Part shown: positions 44,785 to 51,598 of the stretch, in pieces | Numbering within the stretch: the stretch's first letter is position 1 | How the letters are laid out: every line of letters starts with the position of its first letter | NCBI GenBank assembly: GCA_965140415.1 | Contig: OZ223209.1 | Coordinates: 5,120,001 to 5,184,000 of the forward strand | Origin: Myxococcota bacterium | Lineage (GTDB): Bacteria; Myxococcota_A; SURF-8 | Length of the DNA stretch: 64,000 nt | Direction of reading: 5' to 3' | Program-made: the position numbers and the translations under genes | Notes under the pieces: model-generated | What the model saw: the letters and a program-made list of their open reading frames with translations, nothing else | Databases searched by the model: none | Told to the model about the DNA's origin: nothing

Positions 44785-45279
44785 CTACTTCTTCTTCTTT
44801 GGTACCCAGGCCCAGGTCATTTCACAAATAACCGGCTCCACACCAACGGAATCGGTGAGTGTTACCGGCACGACGACTTCTCCTTTGGGGTCGTTGCGGA
44901 TGGCGGCCAGTTGCTCCTCGCTTAACGTCGCGACGGCTTTGAAATCCCCGGTGGAGCGTTTCACGAAATTGAGCTTCATGCTCTTCATCAACGGCAGCGC
45001 CGAGTCGGGCAGGTTCCAGCCGACGACCAGCCCGGTAGTCGTTTCCGCCAGTAGACACATGGCCGAGGCATGGACTTGTTTCAGGTGATTCTGTGCCTTT
45101 CTACGATTTTTCAGGCTACATTCAACTTTGCGTTCTTCCAGCACGTCGATTGTGACCCCGGCGGTGCTCATGAAGGGCACTTTCAGGCCGAAGGCAAACG
45201 AAAAAGCCGGAACGCGCATGTTCTTGGGCAGAAAGCTGAATTTGTCCAATACACGAGTAAGCTGGTTGGAAAAGGACAC
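44785..45279 (-). CDS. Hotdog-fold thioesterase-like protein (DUF4442-like)
   Basis: QNHLKQVHASAMCLLAETTTG, typical of a PaaI-like hotdog fold; GTG start after AGGAG. Confidence 0.82.
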   Translation of the reverse strand: MSFSNQLTRVLDKFSFLPKNMRVPAFSFAFGLKVPFMSTAGVTIDVLEERKVECSLKNRRKAQNHLKQVHASAMCLLAETTTGLVVGWNLPDSALPLMKSMKLNFVKRSTGDFKAVATLSEEQLAAIRNDPKGEVVVPVTLTDSVGVEPVICEMTWAWVPKKKK

Positions 45280-45408
45280 GGAATCTCTCCTGAGTTGTCG
45301 TGATTTTCAATATCTGATTTCCGCCCTCGAAACTACACCAACTCTGCGAGAGATACAAAAGAAAAAGGAACCTGGTTTGGTTGATCACAAAACTCACAAT
45401 CGTGACAG

Positions 45409-45460
45409 AATATGGACAATTAAAAATAAATAGAAAATAATCTGGAAAAAATATGGAATT
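45409..45460 (+). promoter_or_regulatory. Putative CarH/LitR-type 11-bp direct repeats
   Basis: aatatggacaa (45409), aatctggaaaa (45439), aatatggaatt (45450); same motif at 49951-49972. Confidence 0.5.
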
Positions 45461-45566
45461 TTAAAAACAGAAGAGTTGTCTCTATTCATAACAAACAGAC
45501 GCAGTCGCCTTTTTATGGCGGCGAAATCTTTAAATTGGGACTTGGGAGACGAAAAGGAGAAAGAGT

Positions 45567-48296
45567 ATGAAAAAAACAATAAGATGGATATTGACGCTTC
45601 AGTTGGTTTTGGCACTCGCCATAATGAGCACCGCCACGGGATGTGGAGGTGACGACGAAACCGTTGATGGAGATATCACCGATGGTGATGTGACGGATGG
45701 TGATACTGTCGATGGCGACACCACGGATGGCGACACCACGGATGGCGACACCACGGACGGTGATGTGGACCCCGCCATGAGCCAGATTCGTGCGCTGCAT
45801 CTGTCACCGGATGCACCCACCGTGGATATTCTAGTCAATGATGACCTGCGCGCCATCGAGGATCTGGCGTTTCAAGACAGCTCGGACTATTTGGATGTCG
45901 ATGCGGGAAGTTATGACTTCGACGTGGTCCCGGCGGATGGAACGATTGGCGACAGTGTACTGGGCATCGATGATCTGGAGCTGATGGCGGACAAAGCCTA
46001 TACGGCGGTGGCCTTTGGAACGCTGGCGAATATCGGTGCTTTGGCGCTGGAAGACGATCTGAGCGATCCGGCGACCGGCAGTTTCCGTGTGCGTGCGATT
46101 CATGCCGCCGACGGTGTGGGTGAAGTGGATATCTGGAACGTGACCGAGGGCGTGACTCCGGCGATCATTTATGAAGACTTCGGTTACGGAGATGTCGGCG
46201 CGGCGTTGGAACTTCCTGCGGGTGAATACTCGCTGGGTTTCGATGTGGATGACGACATGACTCCGGATCTGGTTTTCGACACCGGTGCCCTGCCTGCGGG
46301 CGCGATCATCAACCTGTTCGCAGTGAAAGACGGCGAAGCGGTGTACCTGCTGGCGCAACTTTCCGACGGTACGACCTTGCAGATCGACCCGCGCGGAGCC
46401 CCCGCCATGAGCCAGATTCGTGCGCTGCATCTGTCACCGGATGCACCCACCGTGGATATTCTAGTCAATGATGACCTGCGCGCCATCGAGGATCTGGCGT
46501 TTCAAGACAGCTCGGACTATTTGGATGTCGATGCGGGAAGTTATGACTTCGACGTGGTCCCGGCGGATGGAACGATTGGCGACAGTGTACTGGGCATCGA
46601 TGATCTGGAGCTGATGGCGGACAAAGCCTATACGGCGGTGGCCTTTGGAACGCTGGCGAATATCGGTGCTTTGGCGCTGGAAGACGATCTGAGCGATCCG
46701 GCGACCGGCAGTTTCCGTGTGCGTGCGATTCATGCCGCCGACGGTGTGGGTGAAGTGGATATCTGGAACGTGACCGAGGGCGTGACTCCGGCGATCATTT
46801 ATGAAGACTTCGGTTACGGAGATGTCGGCGCGGCGTTGGAACTTCCTGCGGGTGAATACTCGCTGGGTTTCGATGTGGATGACGACATGACTCCGGATCT
46901 GGTTTTCGACACCGGTGCCCTGCCTGCGGGCGCGATCATCAACCTGTTCGCAGTGAAAGACGGCGAAGCGGTGTACCTGCTGGCGCAACTTTCCGACGGT
47001 ACGACCTTGCAGATCGACCCGCGCGGAGCCCCCGCCATGAGCCAGATTCGTGCGCTGCATCTGTCACCGGATGCACCCACCGTGGATATTCTAGTCAATG
47101 ATGACCTGCGCGCCATCGAGGATCTGGCGTTTCAAGACAGCTCGGACTATTTGGATGTCGATGCGGGAAGTTATGACTTCGACGTGGTCCCGGCGGATGG
47201 AACGATTGGCGACAGTGTACTGGGCATCGATGATCTGGAGCTGATGGCGGACAAAGCCTATACGGCGGTGGCCTTTGGAACGCTGGCGAATATCGGTGCT
47301 TTGGCGCTGGAAGACGATCTGAGCGATCCGGCGACCGGCAGTTTCCGTGTGCGTGCGATTCATGCCGCCGACGGTGTGGGTGAAGTGGATATCTGGAACG
47401 TGACCGAGGGCGTGACTCCGGCGATCATTTATGAAGACTTCGGTTACGGAGATGTCGGCGCGGCGTTGGAACTTCCTGCGGGTGAATACTCGCTGGGTTT
47501 CGATGTGGATGACGACATGACGCCGGATCTGGTTTTCGACACCGGTGCCTTGCCTGCGGGCGCGATTATCAACCTGTTCGCAGTGAAAGACGGCGAAGCG
47601 GTGTACCTGCTGGCGCAGTTGTCTGACGGTACGACCTTGCAGATCGACCCGCGCGGAGCCCCCGCCATGAGCCAGATTCGTGCGCTGCATGTGTCACCGG
47701 ATGCACCCGCCGTGGATATTCTAGTCAATGATGACCTGCGCGCCATCGAGGATCTGGCGTTTCAAGACAGCTCGGACTATCTGGATGTCGATGCGGGAAG
47801 TTATGACTTCGACGTGGTCCCGGCGGATGGAACGATTGGCGACAGTGTACTGGGCATCGATGATCTGGAGCTGATGGCGGACAAAGCCTATACGGCGGTG
47901 GCCTTTGGAACGCTGGCGAATATCGGTGCTTTGGCGCTGGAAGACGATCTGAGCGATCCGGCGACCGGCAGTTTCCGTGTGCGTGCGATTCATGCCGCCG
48001 ACGGTGTGGGTGAAGTGGATATCTGGAACGTGACCGAGGGCGTGACTCCGGCGATCATTTATGAAGACTTCGGTTACGGAGATGTCGGCGCGGCGTTGGA
48101 ACTTCCTGCGGGTGAATACTCGCTGGGTTTCGATGTGGATGACGACATGACGCCGGATCTGGTTTTCGACACCGGTGCCTTGCCTGCGGGCGCGATTATC
48201 AACCTGTTCGCAGTGAAAGACGGCGAAGCGGTGTACCTGCTGGCGCAGTTGTCTGACGGTACGACCTTGCAGATCGACCCGCGCGGAGATATGTAA
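45567..48296 (+). CDS. Lipoprotein with DGD linker and four tandem 210-aa DUF4397-like units
   Basis: AAGGAG RBS, lipobox ATGC, IRALHLSPDAPTVDI and VRAIHAA...VDI motifs in each unit. Confidence 0.88.
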   Translation: MKKTIRWILTLQLVLALAIMSTATGCGGDDETVDGDITDGDVTDGDTVDGDTTDGDTTDGDTTDGDVDPAMSQIRALHLSPDAPTVDILVNDDLRAIEDLAFQDSSDYLDVDAGSYDFDVVPADGTIGDSVLGIDDLELMADKAYTAVAFGTLANIGALALEDDLSDPATGSFRVRAIHAADGVGEVDIWNVTEGVTPAIIYEDFGYGDVGAALELPAGEYSLGFDVDDDMTPDLVFDTGALPAGAIINLFAVKDGEAVYLLAQLSDGTTLQIDPRGAPAMSQIRALHLSPDAPTVDILVNDDLRAIEDLAFQDSSDYLDVDAGSYDFDVVPADGTIGDSVLGIDDLELMADKAYTAVAFGTLANIGALALEDDLSDPATGSFRVRAIHAADGVGEVDIWNVTEGVTPAIIYEDFGYGDVGAALELPAGEYSLGFDVDDDMTPDLVFDTGALPAGAIINLFAVKDGEAVYLLAQLSDGTTLQIDPRGAPAMSQIRALHLSPDAPTVDILVNDDLRAIEDLAFQDSSDYLDVDAGSYDFDVVPADGTIGDSVLGIDDLELMADKAYTAVAFGTLANIGALALEDDLSDPATGSFRVRAIHAADGVGEVDIWNVTEGVTPAIIYEDFGYGDVGAALELPAGEYSLGFDVDDDMTPDLVFDTGALPAGAIINLFAVKDGEAVYLLAQLSDGTTLQIDPRGAPAMSQIRALHVSPDAPAVDILVNDDLRAIEDLAFQDSSDYLDVDAGSYDFDVVPADGTIGDSVLGIDDLELMADKAYTAVAFGTLANIGALALEDDLSDPATGSFRVRAIHAADGVGEVDIWNVTEGVTPAIIYEDFGYGDVGAALELPAGEYSLGFDVDDDMTPDLVFDTGALPAGAIINLFAVKDGEAVYLLAQLSDGTTLQIDPRGDM
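45771..48288 (+). repeat. Four near-identical 630-bp tandem repeats
   Basis: Units begin cccgccatgagccagattcg at 45771, 46401, 47031 and 47661. Confidence 0.97.
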
Positions 48297-48403
48297 AACA
48301 TGGGTTGGCCTGCACGTCGACGTAGTGTTGGTGTGCAGGTCAACCTGAATGAAATCGATCTTTGACAAGAGATTAAACAAAAACAGGTGGAAAGGGTTTA
48401 AAC

Positions 48404-48730
48404 GTTCCGATGGGATCACTGGCCGATTCTCTCCGGAATGACACGTTCATTTCGTTTTTGCTGGCAGTTGTTTGCTCCTGCCGCAACGAGACTATTGCAT
48501 CGGCTCGGCCCCCCCCGTCCCATTGATGCGTCTCCTCTCCTAACGTTCCTAAACTGATCCGGTCAACGGATTAAGTTGAGCGTTCTGCCGTTGCAGGCTC
48601 TGGGCGGCGGGCATTGTCGTCCTGCACTACAGCGATTCAAAACGAGTTGTCTTTCCGGACTCCTCCCACCTGGCGGCCAAAGCCAATCGGAACAACGTGC
48701 GTCCCATTATGGGGCGCACGTATTTTTTTT
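48404..48730 (+). ncRNA. Candidate structured non-coding RNA or structured 3' UTR
   Basis: Nested long-range pairings from 48404/48693 inward, several internal hairpins with G-U pairs on the plus strand, and an intrinsic terminator directly after. Confidence 0.55.
48695..48730 (+). terminator. Intrinsic terminator
   Basis: acgtgcgtccc-attat-ggggcgcacgt then aTTTTTTTT. Confidence 0.88.
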
Positions 48731-48856
48731 GAGAACTTAGTTTGGTGACGGGGAACGGATTGTTTCATGTTACACTGTATACATACGATATGGGAGGAGC
48801 GCTTTCGTGTGGGAACCGATCGTAGCTGACGTGTCGTTGGATTGTTTAGTGAGAGT

Positions 48857-49825
48857 TCACCCCGACGGCCAGCGCTTGAGCGCACGTTCGAATTCTTCGA
48901 ATTGTGAAAACAGGCGCATTTTGGGGATATTCTGAAGTTGCTTTGCCAGTGTTTCCGGCAGACCGACCCAGACTTCAATTTCCGCAGCCAGTCTTTGTAA
49001 ACCACGAAGCAAATCGATGTAATCTTCATCTTGCTCGGGAAGGACGAGACTTAGTACAAGAACGTCGGCTTCTCGCGATCTGATGGAAAAAAGCAAATCC
49101 TCGAAGGGAATATTCGGTCCCAGGTAAATCGGTTCGAACCCGGCCATGGAACCAAGCACGGCGGCGATCAATGCGCCGAGTTCATGGTGCTGACCCGGCG
49201 GCGTCGAAAAGAGCATCCGGGGACCTTCGGGAGCGGGCGTAACGGATTGCAGCAGGATGAGAAGCCTGCGTTTGACCTGTTCGCTGACCAGATGTTCCTG
49301 CGAGACATTCAGTATGGAAGACGCCCAGCGTTCTCCAACTTCATGCAGCAACGGCAGGAAAATCTTATAAATGAGCTCGCGCGGTGAATACAACAGGGAG
49401 GCGCGTGCCAGAAGTCGCTCGGCCTGCGATGCATTGAAATGTTCAATGTATCCGAGGTAGCGCTGGATCAGTCGTTCTTGTTCGCGCTGTGGGTGCTCCA
49501 AAAGAGTGTCTTCCACAGGTTCCTGCGTTTTTGAAGGCGGTACTTTCTTTTCATCTACTTCATCGACGAGTTGCTGTAATTGCGAAAGTGTTTGTTCTGC
49601 AATACTGCCGATGCGATAGCCCTGCTTTGTGGCTTGGGCAAGCAGTTGCAGGCGTTGGACATCCTGCTGGGAATACATGCGGGTATTGCCTTCGGTGCGC
49701 TGAGGATGGATCGCATGATAACGCCGTTCCCAAACGCGAATCGTGTCTGCCGTAAGACCGGTCATCCGAGTGACGAGGCGCATCGGATACATCGCGTTAT
49801 TGCATCTTTTTTCTTCTGATTGCAT
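48857..49825 (-). CDS. MerR-family B12-binding regulator (CarH/LitR-like)
   Basis: MerR HTH (TIRVWERRY..I.P.RTEGNTRMYS), W-x9-EH (WASSILNVSQEH), GQHHELG, YLGPNIP. Confidence 0.88.
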   Translation of the reverse strand: MQSEEKRCNNAMYPMRLVTRMTGLTADTIRVWERRYHAIHPQRTEGNTRMYSQQDVQRLQLLAQATKQGYRIGSIAEQTLSQLQQLVDEVDEKKVPPSKTQEPVEDTLLEHPQREQERLIQRYLGYIEHFNASQAERLLARASLLYSPRELIYKIFLPLLHEVGERWASSILNVSQEHLVSEQVKRRLLILLQSVTPAPEGPRMLFSTPPGQHHELGALIAAVLGSMAGFEPIYLGPNIPFEDLLFSIRSREADVLVLSLVLPEQDEDYIDLLRGLQRLAAEIEVWVGLPETLAKQLQNIPKMRLFSQFEEFERALKRWPSG

Positions 49826-49950
49826 TCTGCTTTCCTGTTTCTGATCCAGAATCGATTGTAACTCAAAATCTGGAAAGTTCCAGTTCTAAAAAGATAGATG
49901 GAATGATTGTCTATAAAAATTCTAAGAAAAAAATATAAAATAATTAATAT

Positions 49951-49972
49951 TATCTGGAATAGATATGGACAC
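49951..49972 (+). promoter_or_regulatory. Putative CarH/LitR-type 11-bp direct repeats
   Basis: Tandem tatctggaata/gatatggacac; the second matches nAnnTnnACAn. Confidence 0.55.
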
Positions 49973-50054
49973 TATCATGTCTAATATACAGAACGACGAA
50001 TTTGAAGCCAAAAAGGCTTCCATGAAATAACAAACTGATCGAAAGGAAAGAGCC

Positions 50055-50216
50055 ATGAAAAACACTCATAAAGCCGCCTCGCCGATGATCTGGATTCGTG
50101 ACACCAAAGGTGAAACCTATGTTTGCCCGGTCGGGGCCGTGAAAGATCCCAAAAATCCCACAGAGGACGAGCTCAAGCTTTGCGTGAACGAGTCCTTCAA
50201 TCCCCAAAACGACTAA
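50055..50216 (+). CDS. 53-aa small protein absent from the ORF track
   Basis: AAGGAAAG RBS; MKNTHKAASPMIWIRDTKGETYVCPVGAVKDPKNPTEDELKLCVNESFNPQND; terminator follows. Confidence 0.75.
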   Translation: MKNTHKAASPMIWIRDTKGETYVCPVGAVKDPKNPTEDELKLCVNESFNPQND

Positions 50217-50236
50217 CCCCATCTCCCCCATCCACA

Positions 50237-50266
50237 AAAAGGCCGTCGGGATTCCGACGGCCTTTT
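50237..50266. terminator. Bidirectional intrinsic terminator
   Basis: aaaa-ggccgtcgg-gatt-ccgacggcc-tttt. Confidence 0.88.
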
Positions 50267-50299
50267 ATCTTGCAATTTGAATCAACTACAACAAATCTC

Positions 50300-51598
50300 T
50301 CATGACTTCAACAGAAAACCGTCCGCCTGGCGTTTAGCCTGGAAACCGCTGTACAGCACCTTATCCGAACTGCGCCGGGCCTTGGTGGCCGAATCGTTCT
50401 GGTAATAGCCCGAAAAGAGTTGCAAGCCACTGAAGCAGAGCTGTCCATCGTTTTGTTCTGCGACTTCCGCTCCCGCCTGGCCATCTGCCGCCATGGCTTC
50501 CCGCACGGAGGCGGCGCAGACCGGCATACTTTCGAATGGCGTTTGATTATCCACGGCGCAGGCGCACAGTCCCGCCGTTTCCGACAGTGCGAGGCCGTAG
50601 CCTGCTATAGCGGCGAACGTCTTTAAATTCTCCGTAAAATCAGGATCTTGTGGTACGGAAAGACAGCATGCCGTCTGGACATGTAGGTCTTTTTTGGAGT
50701 TCCACAGGGTTTCAAGTTGCTCCGGCAACAGTAGCAACGTGTCAACGGCATACTTTTCTATGGCCGCTGCATCGAAGCTCGGCAGCAGTACTGCGGTTTT
50801 TCCCCAGAAAACTGCGCTGGTGATGTGGAGCAACAGGCTCAATCCGCACGGCAATGGCGTGGCCAGCAGGCGGGAATTCTGTTGCAGGCCCAGTGCAGAG
50901 CCGAGATTCATATTCTGACAGCTAATGGCCTGATGTGAAAGCTGTGCGATGCGAGGCGTACCGTTTTCGATATCGACGTACACGGCCAGTGCCGGGTCTT
51001 CCTCGTCCAGTTCCATGCCGCGCATCGTGAAGGTGTTCAGGATTTCGGAGTCCATCCCTTTGGCGTGCTCGCTGCGGGCAAAGTCGCGCGCGCCTTCGAT
51101 AAAGCTCGCTCCGTTTTCCGCAGCGGCGAAGGAGGACGCGTCTGCCCCGAACTGCAACCAGCTTCTTACGCAGGGCAACGAAGACGCATCGAAGGTGGGG
51201 GAAGCGCTGAAAGCGAAGGCTTTGGCCTGCATGTGCTCGATAGCCTGCCGCATGGCTTCGGCGTCCATTTCGGGATCGAGTTCCAGCATGAGCGCACCGA
51301 TTTTCAGGCAGCCGTAATAGAGCAGCACATGCTCGGGGATCATCGGAAGCGCGGTGGCGAAGACGTCGCCTTTTTCAAAGCCCATGTCCAGTAATTTCAC
51401 GGCGATGGCCGTTGTGGCCTGCTCGAACTGCTCCCAGGTGATTTCGTTTCCGTTCTCGGCGGAGATTAACGCCGTATCACCGGCTTTTTCTTCCGCCCAG
51501 TTGGCCAGGGCTTCATCCAGCAAATGTCGATCAGAGAAGTCGCGCTCGTAGTCGTCCGCCGTAAGCTGGGGAATGGGAAATGCTTTAAATTCCGACAT
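50300..51598 (-). CDS. Degenerate AMP-binding (acyl-CoA synthetase-like) protein
   Basis: N-terminal fold and GYGLALSETAG-like motif recognisable; P-loop signature eroded; C-terminal domain missing. Confidence 0.7.
   Translation of the reverse strand: MSEFKAFPIPQLTADDYERDFSDRHLLDEALANWAEEKAGDTALISAENGNEITWEQFEQATTAIAVKLLDMGFEKGDVFATALPMIPEHVLLYYGCLKIGALMLELDPEMDAEAMRQAIEHMQAKAFAFSASPTFDASSLPCVRSWLQFGADASSFAAAENGASFIEGARDFARSEHAKGMDSEILNTFTMRGMELDEEDPALAVYVDIENGTPRIAQLSHQAISCQNMNLGSALGLQQNSRLLATPLPCGLSLLLHITSAVFWGKTAVLLPSFDAAAIEKYAVDTLLLLPEQLETLWNSKKDLHVQTACCLSVPQDPDFTENLKTFAAIAGYGLALSETAGLCACAVDNQTPFESMPVCAASVREAMAADGQAGAEVAEQNDGQLCFSGLQLFSGYYQNDSATKARRSSDKVLYSGFQAKRQADGFLLKS

Follow-up and report, generated by a model that had tools for sequence, protein, structure and literature searches.

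A predicted CarH-type B12 photoreceptor and its candidate target, a tandem-repeat gene for a putative DUF4397 lipoprotein, in a Myxococcota genome lacking phytoene synthase

CarH and LitR proteins serve as models of B12-based photoreception and have found wide use as optogenetic parts. To our knowledge, the natural outputs of these regulators are almost only carotenoid and photolyase genes, and Takano and colleagues are said to have described in 2014 an LdrP-dependent light-inducible cluster on a Thermus plasmid. Here, we describe a locus in a Myxococcota bacterium (GenBank assembly GCA_965140415.1) in which a gene for a CarH/LitR-type regulator is accompanied by a gene for a predicted lipoprotein composed of DUF4397 units. 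The window, by which we mean the whole stretch of DNA analyzed, comprised 64,000 nucleotides (contig OZ223209.1, positions 5,120,001 to 5,184,000 of the forward strand), and coordinates are those of the window unless a genome or locus is named. The host genome was a single contig of 5.98 Mb (5,975,757 bp) with a G+C content of 52%. From left to right, the locus contained a DUF4442 gene (minus strand), a 290-bp AT-rich gap, the DUF4397 gene (plus strand; 45567..48296), a 560-bp non-coding stretch (48297-48856), the convergent regulator gene (minus strand; 48857..49825), a 229-bp AT-rich gap and a gene for a 53-residue protein (plus strand), beyond which an acyl-CoA-ligase-like gene was located on the minus strand.

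According to the accessible part of PMC9304148, the Wx9EH motif tells CarH from the B12-independent CarA, RxWERRY is the DNA-recognition motif, and CarH operators are built from 11-bp nnnnTnnACAn repeats in tandem together with pseudo-repeats, which overlap the -35 or -10 element. We found that the 322-residue protein encoded in the window had the three-part architecture of this family, namely a MerR helix-turn-helix domain, a four-helix bundle with W-x9-EH and a Rossmann B12-binding domain, with Pfam matches to MerR_1 (1.2e-14), B12-binding_2 (6.8e-11) and B12-binding (5.4e-9). The preliminary description of this DNA had proposed a MerR-B12 regulator with W-x9-EH, the B12-ligand His and QHH at the ExH position, and these features were all recovered as W167-x9-E177-H178 and Q212-H-H214; additionally, a script-based search placed RVWERRY at residue 30. 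The closest solved relative was found to be Thermus thermophilus CarH (TtCarH; PDB 5C8D, E 3e-32), whose W131, E141, H142 and H177 (the cobalt ligand) aligned with W167, E177, H178 and H214 of the regulator. In particular, the Rossmann domain motif read Q212-x-H214-x2-G-x41-S259-x-V-x26-G288-L (Q-H-H-E-L-G, then x41-S-L-V, from residue 212). Compared with the D/ExHx2G/P-x41-SxT/V-x22-27-GG motif, the regulator kept the His, the Gly, the Ser and the first Gly of the final pair, whereas the acidic residue was replaced by Gln and the second Gly by Leu. An alignment of eight DUF4397-linked homologues revealed that W167, E177, H178, H214, S259 and G288 were invariant and that the acidic position was occupied by Gln, Met, His or Glu; W-x9-EH was present in 123 of the 124 homologues gathered. 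As judged from these sequence features, the protein is a LitR/CarH-type regulator, and it belongs to class I because both B12 domains are present.

The regulator was the sole B12-binding_2 match in the host genome. We also observed that B12-binding_2 occurred in a frame of approximately 1160 residues, the size of MetH, in three of five genomes of the same family, and the host genome may lack a B12-dependent methionine synthase. Two cobalamin riboswitches and one PduO-type adenosyltransferase were identified in the host genome, so that a supply of adenosylcobalamin (AdoCbl) is possible. The SQS_PSY family (PF00494, phytoene/squalene synthase) had no match in the single-contig genome, whereas the control genomes did match; the host therefore lacks a CrtB-type carotenoid pathway, in line with the regulon without carotenoid genes proposed in the preliminary description.

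The two AT-rich gaps contained the candidate operators. ATATGGA started at 45410, 45451 and 49963, and ATCTGGA at 45440, 49868 and 49952, which places motif units in both promoter regions where they had originally been described. As a single 7-mer, ATMTGGA was counted 40 times in the window, where 12.9 would be expected, with many occurrences in repeated coding sequence; the lone ATCTGGA unit at 49868..49874 (plus strand), which lies within a CTGGAA/TTCCAG palindrome in the regulator leader, is therefore present as previously noted and carries no weight by itself. In contrast to the single 7-mer, the tandem arrangement was rare. Two zero-mismatch matches to ATCTGGAA-N3-ATATGGA were found in the window against 0.05 expected, and AT[AC]TGGA-N4-AT[AC]TGGA had exactly two matches in the whole genome when both strands were scanned, at 45440 and 49952. 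A background frequency of the motif had been named beforehand as grounds for abandoning the reading, and the genome-wide scan instead returned the tandem pair only at this locus. A looser tandem pattern gave zero to three matches per genome in four relatives and, in the host genome, again those two alone.

Upstream of the DUF4397 gene, 45398-45426 and 45439-45467 formed a 29-nt direct repeat with 76% identity, from which it follows that this region contains two two-unit pairs, 41 bp apart. Pair 1 (45398..45419, plus strand) consists of two tandem 11-bp units, of which 45398-45408 has the ACA and lacks the T, and 45409-45419 is a full TnnACA repeat (TggACA; consensus nnnnTnnACAn). Pair 2 (45439..45460, plus strand), one of the two genome-wide matches, consists of ATCTGGAA and ATATGGAA, which are both pseudo-repeats. 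The other genome-wide match, in the divergent promoter region (49951..49972, plus strand), has a pseudo-repeat as its first unit, and its second unit (49962-49972) is a full TnnACA repeat. The earlier claim that the units fit the 11-bp consensus thus held for 45409-45419 and 49962-49972 and failed for the others. In a consensus scan, the best promoter match in 45250-50350 was the sigma-70-like candidate TGGACA-17-AATAAT of the DUF4397 gene (45413..45441, plus strand; 10/12); its -35-like TGGACA lies in the unit 45409-45419, so that pair 1 overlaps this promoter, and pair 2 abuts it. On the minus strand, the regulator promoter candidate ATGATA-18-GATAAT (49978-49949) contains the 49951-49972 operator, whose units fill its spacer. 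A sigma-54 reading of the motif was ruled out by eye, as no GC was present at -12.

We found that the site before the DUF4397 gene was conserved in a relative of the same order (G008), whose regulator was 41% identical to that of the window and was its sister in the tree. In G008, a DUF4397 lipoprotein gene with one unit lies directly upstream of the regulator gene on the same strand, and ATCTGGAAAAAACATGGA, located approximately 255 bp before the DUF4397 gene, was identical to the window pair 2 site at 17 of 18 bases. Upon alignment of the two upstream regions, the ATCTGGAAAAAACATGGA block was the longest conserved segment within diverged surroundings, and the TATGG core of pair 1 occurred at an identical 30-bp spacing in both. 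The next 11-mer in G008 was a perfect repeat with a TTGACA -35 element, and TATGAT followed 16 bp further on. Upstream of the DUF4397 genes of G383 and G358, a -35 element was followed by two or three copies of TGTCCA spaced 11 bp apart and then by a -10 element, which is the layout of the minus-strand promoter in the window. In G024 and G039, three repeats began at the -10 element, and the intergenic regions of loci L069 and L071 contained tandem TnnACA units (canonical repeats). The three-unit scan that found the sites in G008, G383, G358, G024 and G039 found nothing else in approximately 94 kb of those loci, and in a control of the four-position scan, the known Thermus carH-crtB operator was the sole match of at least 11/12 in 24.6 kb. 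When a position weight matrix (PWM) built from the relatives was used to rank all tandem pairs of the host genome, pair 2 was ranked 4, pair 1 was ranked 6 and 49951-49972 was ranked 10. Three other PWM candidates in the host genome (G000) were dismissed, as 3540409 was at the 3' end of a gene, 3600623 within a 908-residue frame and 5054980 within a 703-residue frame. Two relatives of the same family as the host, G001 and G003, kept DUF4397 orthologues (two and four units, respectively) and lacked both the regulator and the upstream tandem motif; B12-binding_2 had no match in G001, and its one match in G003 was in a 1164-residue frame. The DUF4397 loci of the host, G001 and G003 showed no flanking synteny with one another.

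The gene pair itself recurred. A DUF4397 gene was found beside a regulator homologue at eight of 45 related loci from other genomes (1.5-kb flanks), six times upstream on the same strand and twice divergent. In genus g23, it was divergent from the regulator at seven of 11 further paralogue loci, and among named genomes (6-kb flanks), it was present at three of 80 loci, in one Myxococcota metagenome-assembled genome and two Ignavibacteriales, whose intergenic regions held tandem TnnACA units. The DUF4397 gene adjoining the regulator was the sole DUF4397 gene of the genome in G008, G358, G383 and G024, as it is in the host genome (seven rows, one frame). Of 401 genomes sampled from the phylum, 62 had the regulator (E up to 1e-35), 104 had DUF4397 and 28 had both, an odds ratio of 2.8 that is not corrected for kinship. 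In a quick maximum-likelihood tree built from 124 regulator sequences, those from the phylum genomes interleaved with named Polyangiaceae records; on this tree, adjacency required at least four changes and was clustered, with none of 500 shuffles being as low. At distant divergent loci (L069 4530-5021; L071; L094), other small exported or membrane proteins traveled with the DUF4397 gene; one of these accompanying proteins was fasciclin-like by eye, and in the Ignavibacteriales loci, a small hydrophobic frame was located just upstream.

Upon comparison of one DUF4397 unit with plasmids by tblastn, we identified a match on the Thermus megaplasmid pTT27 that covered 95% of the unit at 33% identity. 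In strain HB27, this DUF4397 gene is 9.3 kb from carH and heads a gene run that ends with uvsE, ldrP, carH, crtB and phr. In strain HB8, it is located at 79721-80386 and corresponds by coordinates to TTHB089 of PMC7662524 (TT_P0044 in HB27). According to the accessible part of that paper, TTHB099 is the orthologue of LdrP and shares the litR operon with TTHB100. TTHB099 is reported there to bind, with a KD of 3.3 nM, at a site located 78 bp upstream of TTHB089, the expression of which was lower in the TTHB099 mutant (logFC -0.78, p 0.045); TTHB089 is labeled a hypothetical protein, with no DUF4397 link drawn. The four-position scan found no CarH-type repeat upstream of TTHB089, so that the Thermus DUF4397 link would run through LdrP. 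The output at our locus had not been recognized in the preliminary description; it does differ from a carotenoid target, but is not wholly without precedent, as Thermus has a DUF4397 gene in its carH/ldrP light cluster. In the open literature covered, none of the DUF4397 papers listed dealt with light or B12, and its CarH/LitR operator and regulon papers, including the accessible parts of PMC9304148 and PMC9758184, named no DUF4397 target. The pairing of CarH with DUF4397, as read from gene neighborhoods, thus appears to recur in several bacterial phyla and apparently was not noted previously in that literature.

Taken together, these data indicate that a class I LitR/CarH-type, AdoCbl-dependent and light-sensitive repressor probably controls its own promoter and that of the DUF4397 lipoprotein gene. 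Reasoning by analogy with the family, we infer AdoCbl binding, DNA binding, the response to light and the transcription starts. In the dark, an AdoCbl-loaded oligomer would bind the tandem 11-bp repeats at two places, namely the regulator's own promoter, where the operator would also cover the -35 region of the divergent 53-residue protein gene, and the promoter of the one DUF4397 gene in the genome, 4.5 kb away. In the light, cleavage of the Co-C bond would dissociate the oligomer and release both promoters, and a shortage of AdoCbl should release them in the same way. The assignment of targets draws on the uniqueness of the tandem motif and on comparative genomics; the DUF4397 gene, which had already been put forward as a target, is a credible direct one, with both its pairing with the regulator gene and the operator retained in relatives.

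Several observations weigh against this reading. The window sites are weak by the published consensus, with one full TnnACA repeat per region, and no triple in the window reached 12/15 or more in a five-position repeat scan. A PWM built from the G383 and G358 units alone left the window sites outside the genome top 15, and tandem pairs of equally high PWM score were found within genes. In the regulator, the acid of D/ExH is replaced by Gln (Glu175 in TtCarH), and Ala occupies the position of TtCarH His132, which is next to the Trp and in Thermus becomes the upper ligand once photolysis has taken place. The score for the NCBIfam CarH equivalog NF052513 was 136 bits against a cut-off of 400, although this was still the best-matching family. 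Finally, the GGAAT unit can also be read as the -35 element of a GGAAT-N18-GTCT promoter, an element kept in G001, which has no regulator.

An alternative, which we consider unlikely, is that the protein is mainly a sensor of B12 availability in a dark habitat, where AdoCbl would mean repression and scarcity would lead to lipoprotein synthesis, with light being incidental; in this scenario, the lipoprotein might help to capture corrinoids on the cell surface. The published CarH mechanism, in the part of the literature available to us, is compatible with this view because AdoCbl is needed for DNA binding, so that B12 scarcity derepresses as light does, and the two riboswitches and the adenosyltransferase, the match of the organism's DNA to a wetland sample and the nature of the target, an exported lipoprotein with ligand-binding-type Ig/CBM-like folds, point the same way. 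However, the photoreceptor mark Wx9EH is retained in all but one of the 124 homologues, and the Thermus DUF4397 gene is located among photolyase, UV endonuclease and carotenoid genes. Moreover, no B12 transporter or riboswitch was present beside DUF4397 genes in the neighborhoods searched, and B12 uptake genes are usually controlled by riboswitches, which the host genome has.

It is likewise improbable, somewhat more so, that the ATMTGGAAT units are the -35 elements of an alternative-sigma promoter, GGAAT-N18-GTCT, that drives the DUF4397 and 53-residue protein genes and is perhaps of the oxidative-stress extracytoplasmic function type, with the regulator binding the full TGGACA repeats or its own promoter only. 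GGAAT-N18-GTCT[AC] occurred 15 times in the genome, and all four of the crudely intergenic copies were 40-110 bp upstream of genes, namely the DUF4397 gene (45455-45482), the 53-residue protein gene (49956-49983), sufCB and iscR-like/cysK; the other two intergenic copies were at G000 3565885-3565912 and 348369-348396, both on the minus strand. Additionally, G001 keeps the GGAAT and GTCTA spacing before its 53-residue protein gene, where the neighboring full repeat is lost. This explanation leaves unexplained the second unit exactly 11 bp away at both sites, and G008 keeps the pair even though its promoter is TTGACA-16-TATGAT without GTCT. The pattern against its reversed control gave 19/1 in G001, 11/1 in G004 and 7/8 in G008 (not enriched), and most copies in G001 and G004 were intragenic, so that the enrichment may reflect codon bias. 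The two readings are also compatible, as CarH operators in the accessible part of PMC9304148 embed the -35 element in a repeat; GGAAT-N18-GTCT could be an alternative-sigma promoter with its -35 element embedded in a CarH pseudo-repeat, the statistics being weak. Lastly, a chance coincidence of motifs with the true targets elsewhere, which the AT-rich intergenic regions, the common 7-mer and PWM matches of similar score elsewhere in the genome might suggest, is very improbable given that the two genome-wide matches are both at the regulator and no more than 4.5 kb apart, that the site is conserved in G008 and that different families and phyla have kept the gene pair.

The candidate target of the CarH-type regulator encodes a protein of 909 residues with a putative signal peptide, Cys26, a TDGD linker and four 210-residue units. 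Its match to PF14344 (DUF4397) was above the gathering score (6.6e-136, 446.6 bits) and comprised four stretches. The signal peptide was read from the sequence, and Cys26, in TATGC, fits a relaxed lipobox pattern and misses the strict [LVI][ASTVI][GAS]C; in the G001 and G008 orthologues, an acidic run likewise comes after a Cys. The linker after Cys26 has 42 residues, 17 of which are Asp, and is of the TDGD type, encoded by 15-bp tandem repeats (45666-45764). In an RNA-library contig of a near-identical organism, one 15-nt linker unit was missing at 45711, which implies that the linker length varies between strains. We also found in the host genome a 171-residue putative lipoprotein (G000 3540390-3540905, minus strand) with a similar Cys-Gly-Asp-rich TDGD linker, which was not a DUF4397 protein.

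The four 630-bp repeats that encode the units differ from each other by 0-12 bases, and in a short-read assembly, the unit was collapsed into one 629-nt contig with approximately 3-4 times the flanking depth. The relatives had one (G008), two (G001) or four units (G003, as in the host), and a 1927-residue frame was present in G023; the frames concerned were L049 425-6208, L147 1667-4396 and L138 1283-2751. The near-identity of the copies in the host points to recent, repeated expansion. In the AlphaFold2 (AF2) model of one 210-residue unit (pLDDT 95), two immunoglobulin (Ig)-like beta-sandwiches were observed. A fold search with one unit matched the two-Ig extracellular domain of PepT1/2 (TMq 0.63), and AlgF domains and CBM41 also matched; judging from the model, these matches are generic and describe a scaffold, not a function. 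A sequence search of the Protein Data Bank with DUF4397 gave no match. The protein is thus predicted from its model to be an envelope lipoprotein of tandem Ig-like sandwiches, and we would guess that its role is that of a protective or ligand-binding surface layer.

The third gene of the locus (50055..50216, plus strand), divergent from that of the regulator, encodes a 53-residue protein with two conserved Cys, and a hairpin with a T-run, read directly from the sequence, follows it (~50240-50266). A homologue with 73% identity was found in G001; the differences at the three codon positions were 14/9/27, with 19 synonymous and 15 non-synonymous codon changes. The protein had no Pfam or NCBIfam match, a word-indexed search found only itself, and an atlas search returned unnamed clusters only, with scores below 0.9. 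A profile search (E up to 1e-3) gathered 96 clusters of proteins of approximately 55 residues, many of which end in NPQN and in which W13, G19, C24, L40 and C43 are near-invariant. From these comparisons, the 53-residue protein gene is judged a real gene. The family was found in four of the 401 genomes of the phylum and was next to the regulator only in the host genome; in G001, which lacks CarH, the gene (L137 1495-1659, minus strand) is just after a gene that is thioredoxin reductase-like by eye. The preliminary description had included this gene among the targets. Since its relatives elsewhere are not beside CarH, its membership in the regulon would be specific to the host genome and rests on one shared operator; control by the operator at 49951-49972 is plausible.

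A structured RNA downstream of the lipoprotein gene had also been proposed as a target, and this proposal found no support. The stretch of approximately 440 nt at 48297..48740 (plus strand) contains a 20-bp hairpin and ends at a strong terminator (48695-48721 plus T8). The minimum free energy z-score of the plus strand was -5.3 overall; without the end hairpins, it was -2.9 on the plus strand and -0.66 on the minus strand. No credible Rfam match was found, either in the whole window at the gathering threshold or in 48250-48900 at E up to 10, and a DNA search of 20 relatives with the 560-bp spacer found nothing outside the host genome. This stretch may be a long 3' untranslated region or an RNA, and nothing ties it to the regulator except its downstream position. 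The four sequencing runs were available as contigs, and the RNA run as wetland metatranscriptome contigs, which are uninformative on starts, strand and regulation and whose uncovered parts carry no meaning. Contigs of the RNA run X4 covered 45659-45874, 47814-47977, 48921-49069 and 50010-50213; the last of these is a weak hint of expression of the 53-residue protein gene.

As a broader and more tentative proposal, which as a whole is rather doubtful, DUF4397 tandem-Ig lipoproteins could be a conserved cross-phylum output of B12 photoreceptors (together with CarH in Myxococcota and Ignavibacteriota, and by way of LdrP in Thermus) and the main light defense of bacteria without carotenoids; under this joint proposal, they might form a layer of the envelope that would bind a photosensitizer or corrinoid or shield the cell from it, with the unit number (1, 2, 4 or at least 9) tuned by recent repeat expansion. 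DUF4397 is repeatedly wired to CarH, at times as its sole visible target, and here in a host that cannot make carotenoids. An envelope function that either protects from light or responds to it, and does so without pigment, is thereby suggested. This wiring provides a first testable physiological context for DUF4397, a response to light and/or B12, and Thermus TTHB089/TT_P0044 would be an easy model because genetics, CarH tools and expression data exist.

Among the known systems, Thermus CarH (LitR, TTHB100/TT_P0056; PDB 5C8D-F) shares with the window regulator the three-part architecture, the aligned W-x9-EH and lower-ligand His, a divergent promoter with tandem 11-bp units, for which autoregulation is predicted in the window, and a DUF4397 gene in a light-response neighborhood. 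The two proteins are, however, approximately 30-35% identical, and whereas the Thermus operator has three full repeats, the window has two units per site, mostly pseudo-repeats. Thermus CarH controls crtB, a gene that the host genome lacks, and Thermus reaches DUF4397 via LdrP, while the window would do so via the predicted CarH operator. In contrast to class I proteins, the Pseudomonas class II LitR proteins (PplR/PmlR), as far as described in the accessible part of PMC9758184, do without the Rossmann B12 domain and need a LOV protein, whereas the window protein has both B12 domains; the likeness is in a non-carotenoid light regulon, which comprises photolyase, furan fatty-acid synthase, folE and genes of no assigned role. 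The CarH proteins of myxobacteria (Myxococcus, Cystobacter and Sorangiineae; PMC9304148, accessible part) probably come from the same phylum, as the interleaving in the tree suggests, and keep Wx9EH and RxWERRY, and the Sorangiineae operators, with one full repeat flanked by pseudo-repeats, resemble those of the window. The regulons that this part of PMC9304148 describes are carotenogenic, with no lipoprotein, photolyase or other target mentioned there, whereas the predicted output of the window regulator is a DUF4397 lipoprotein.

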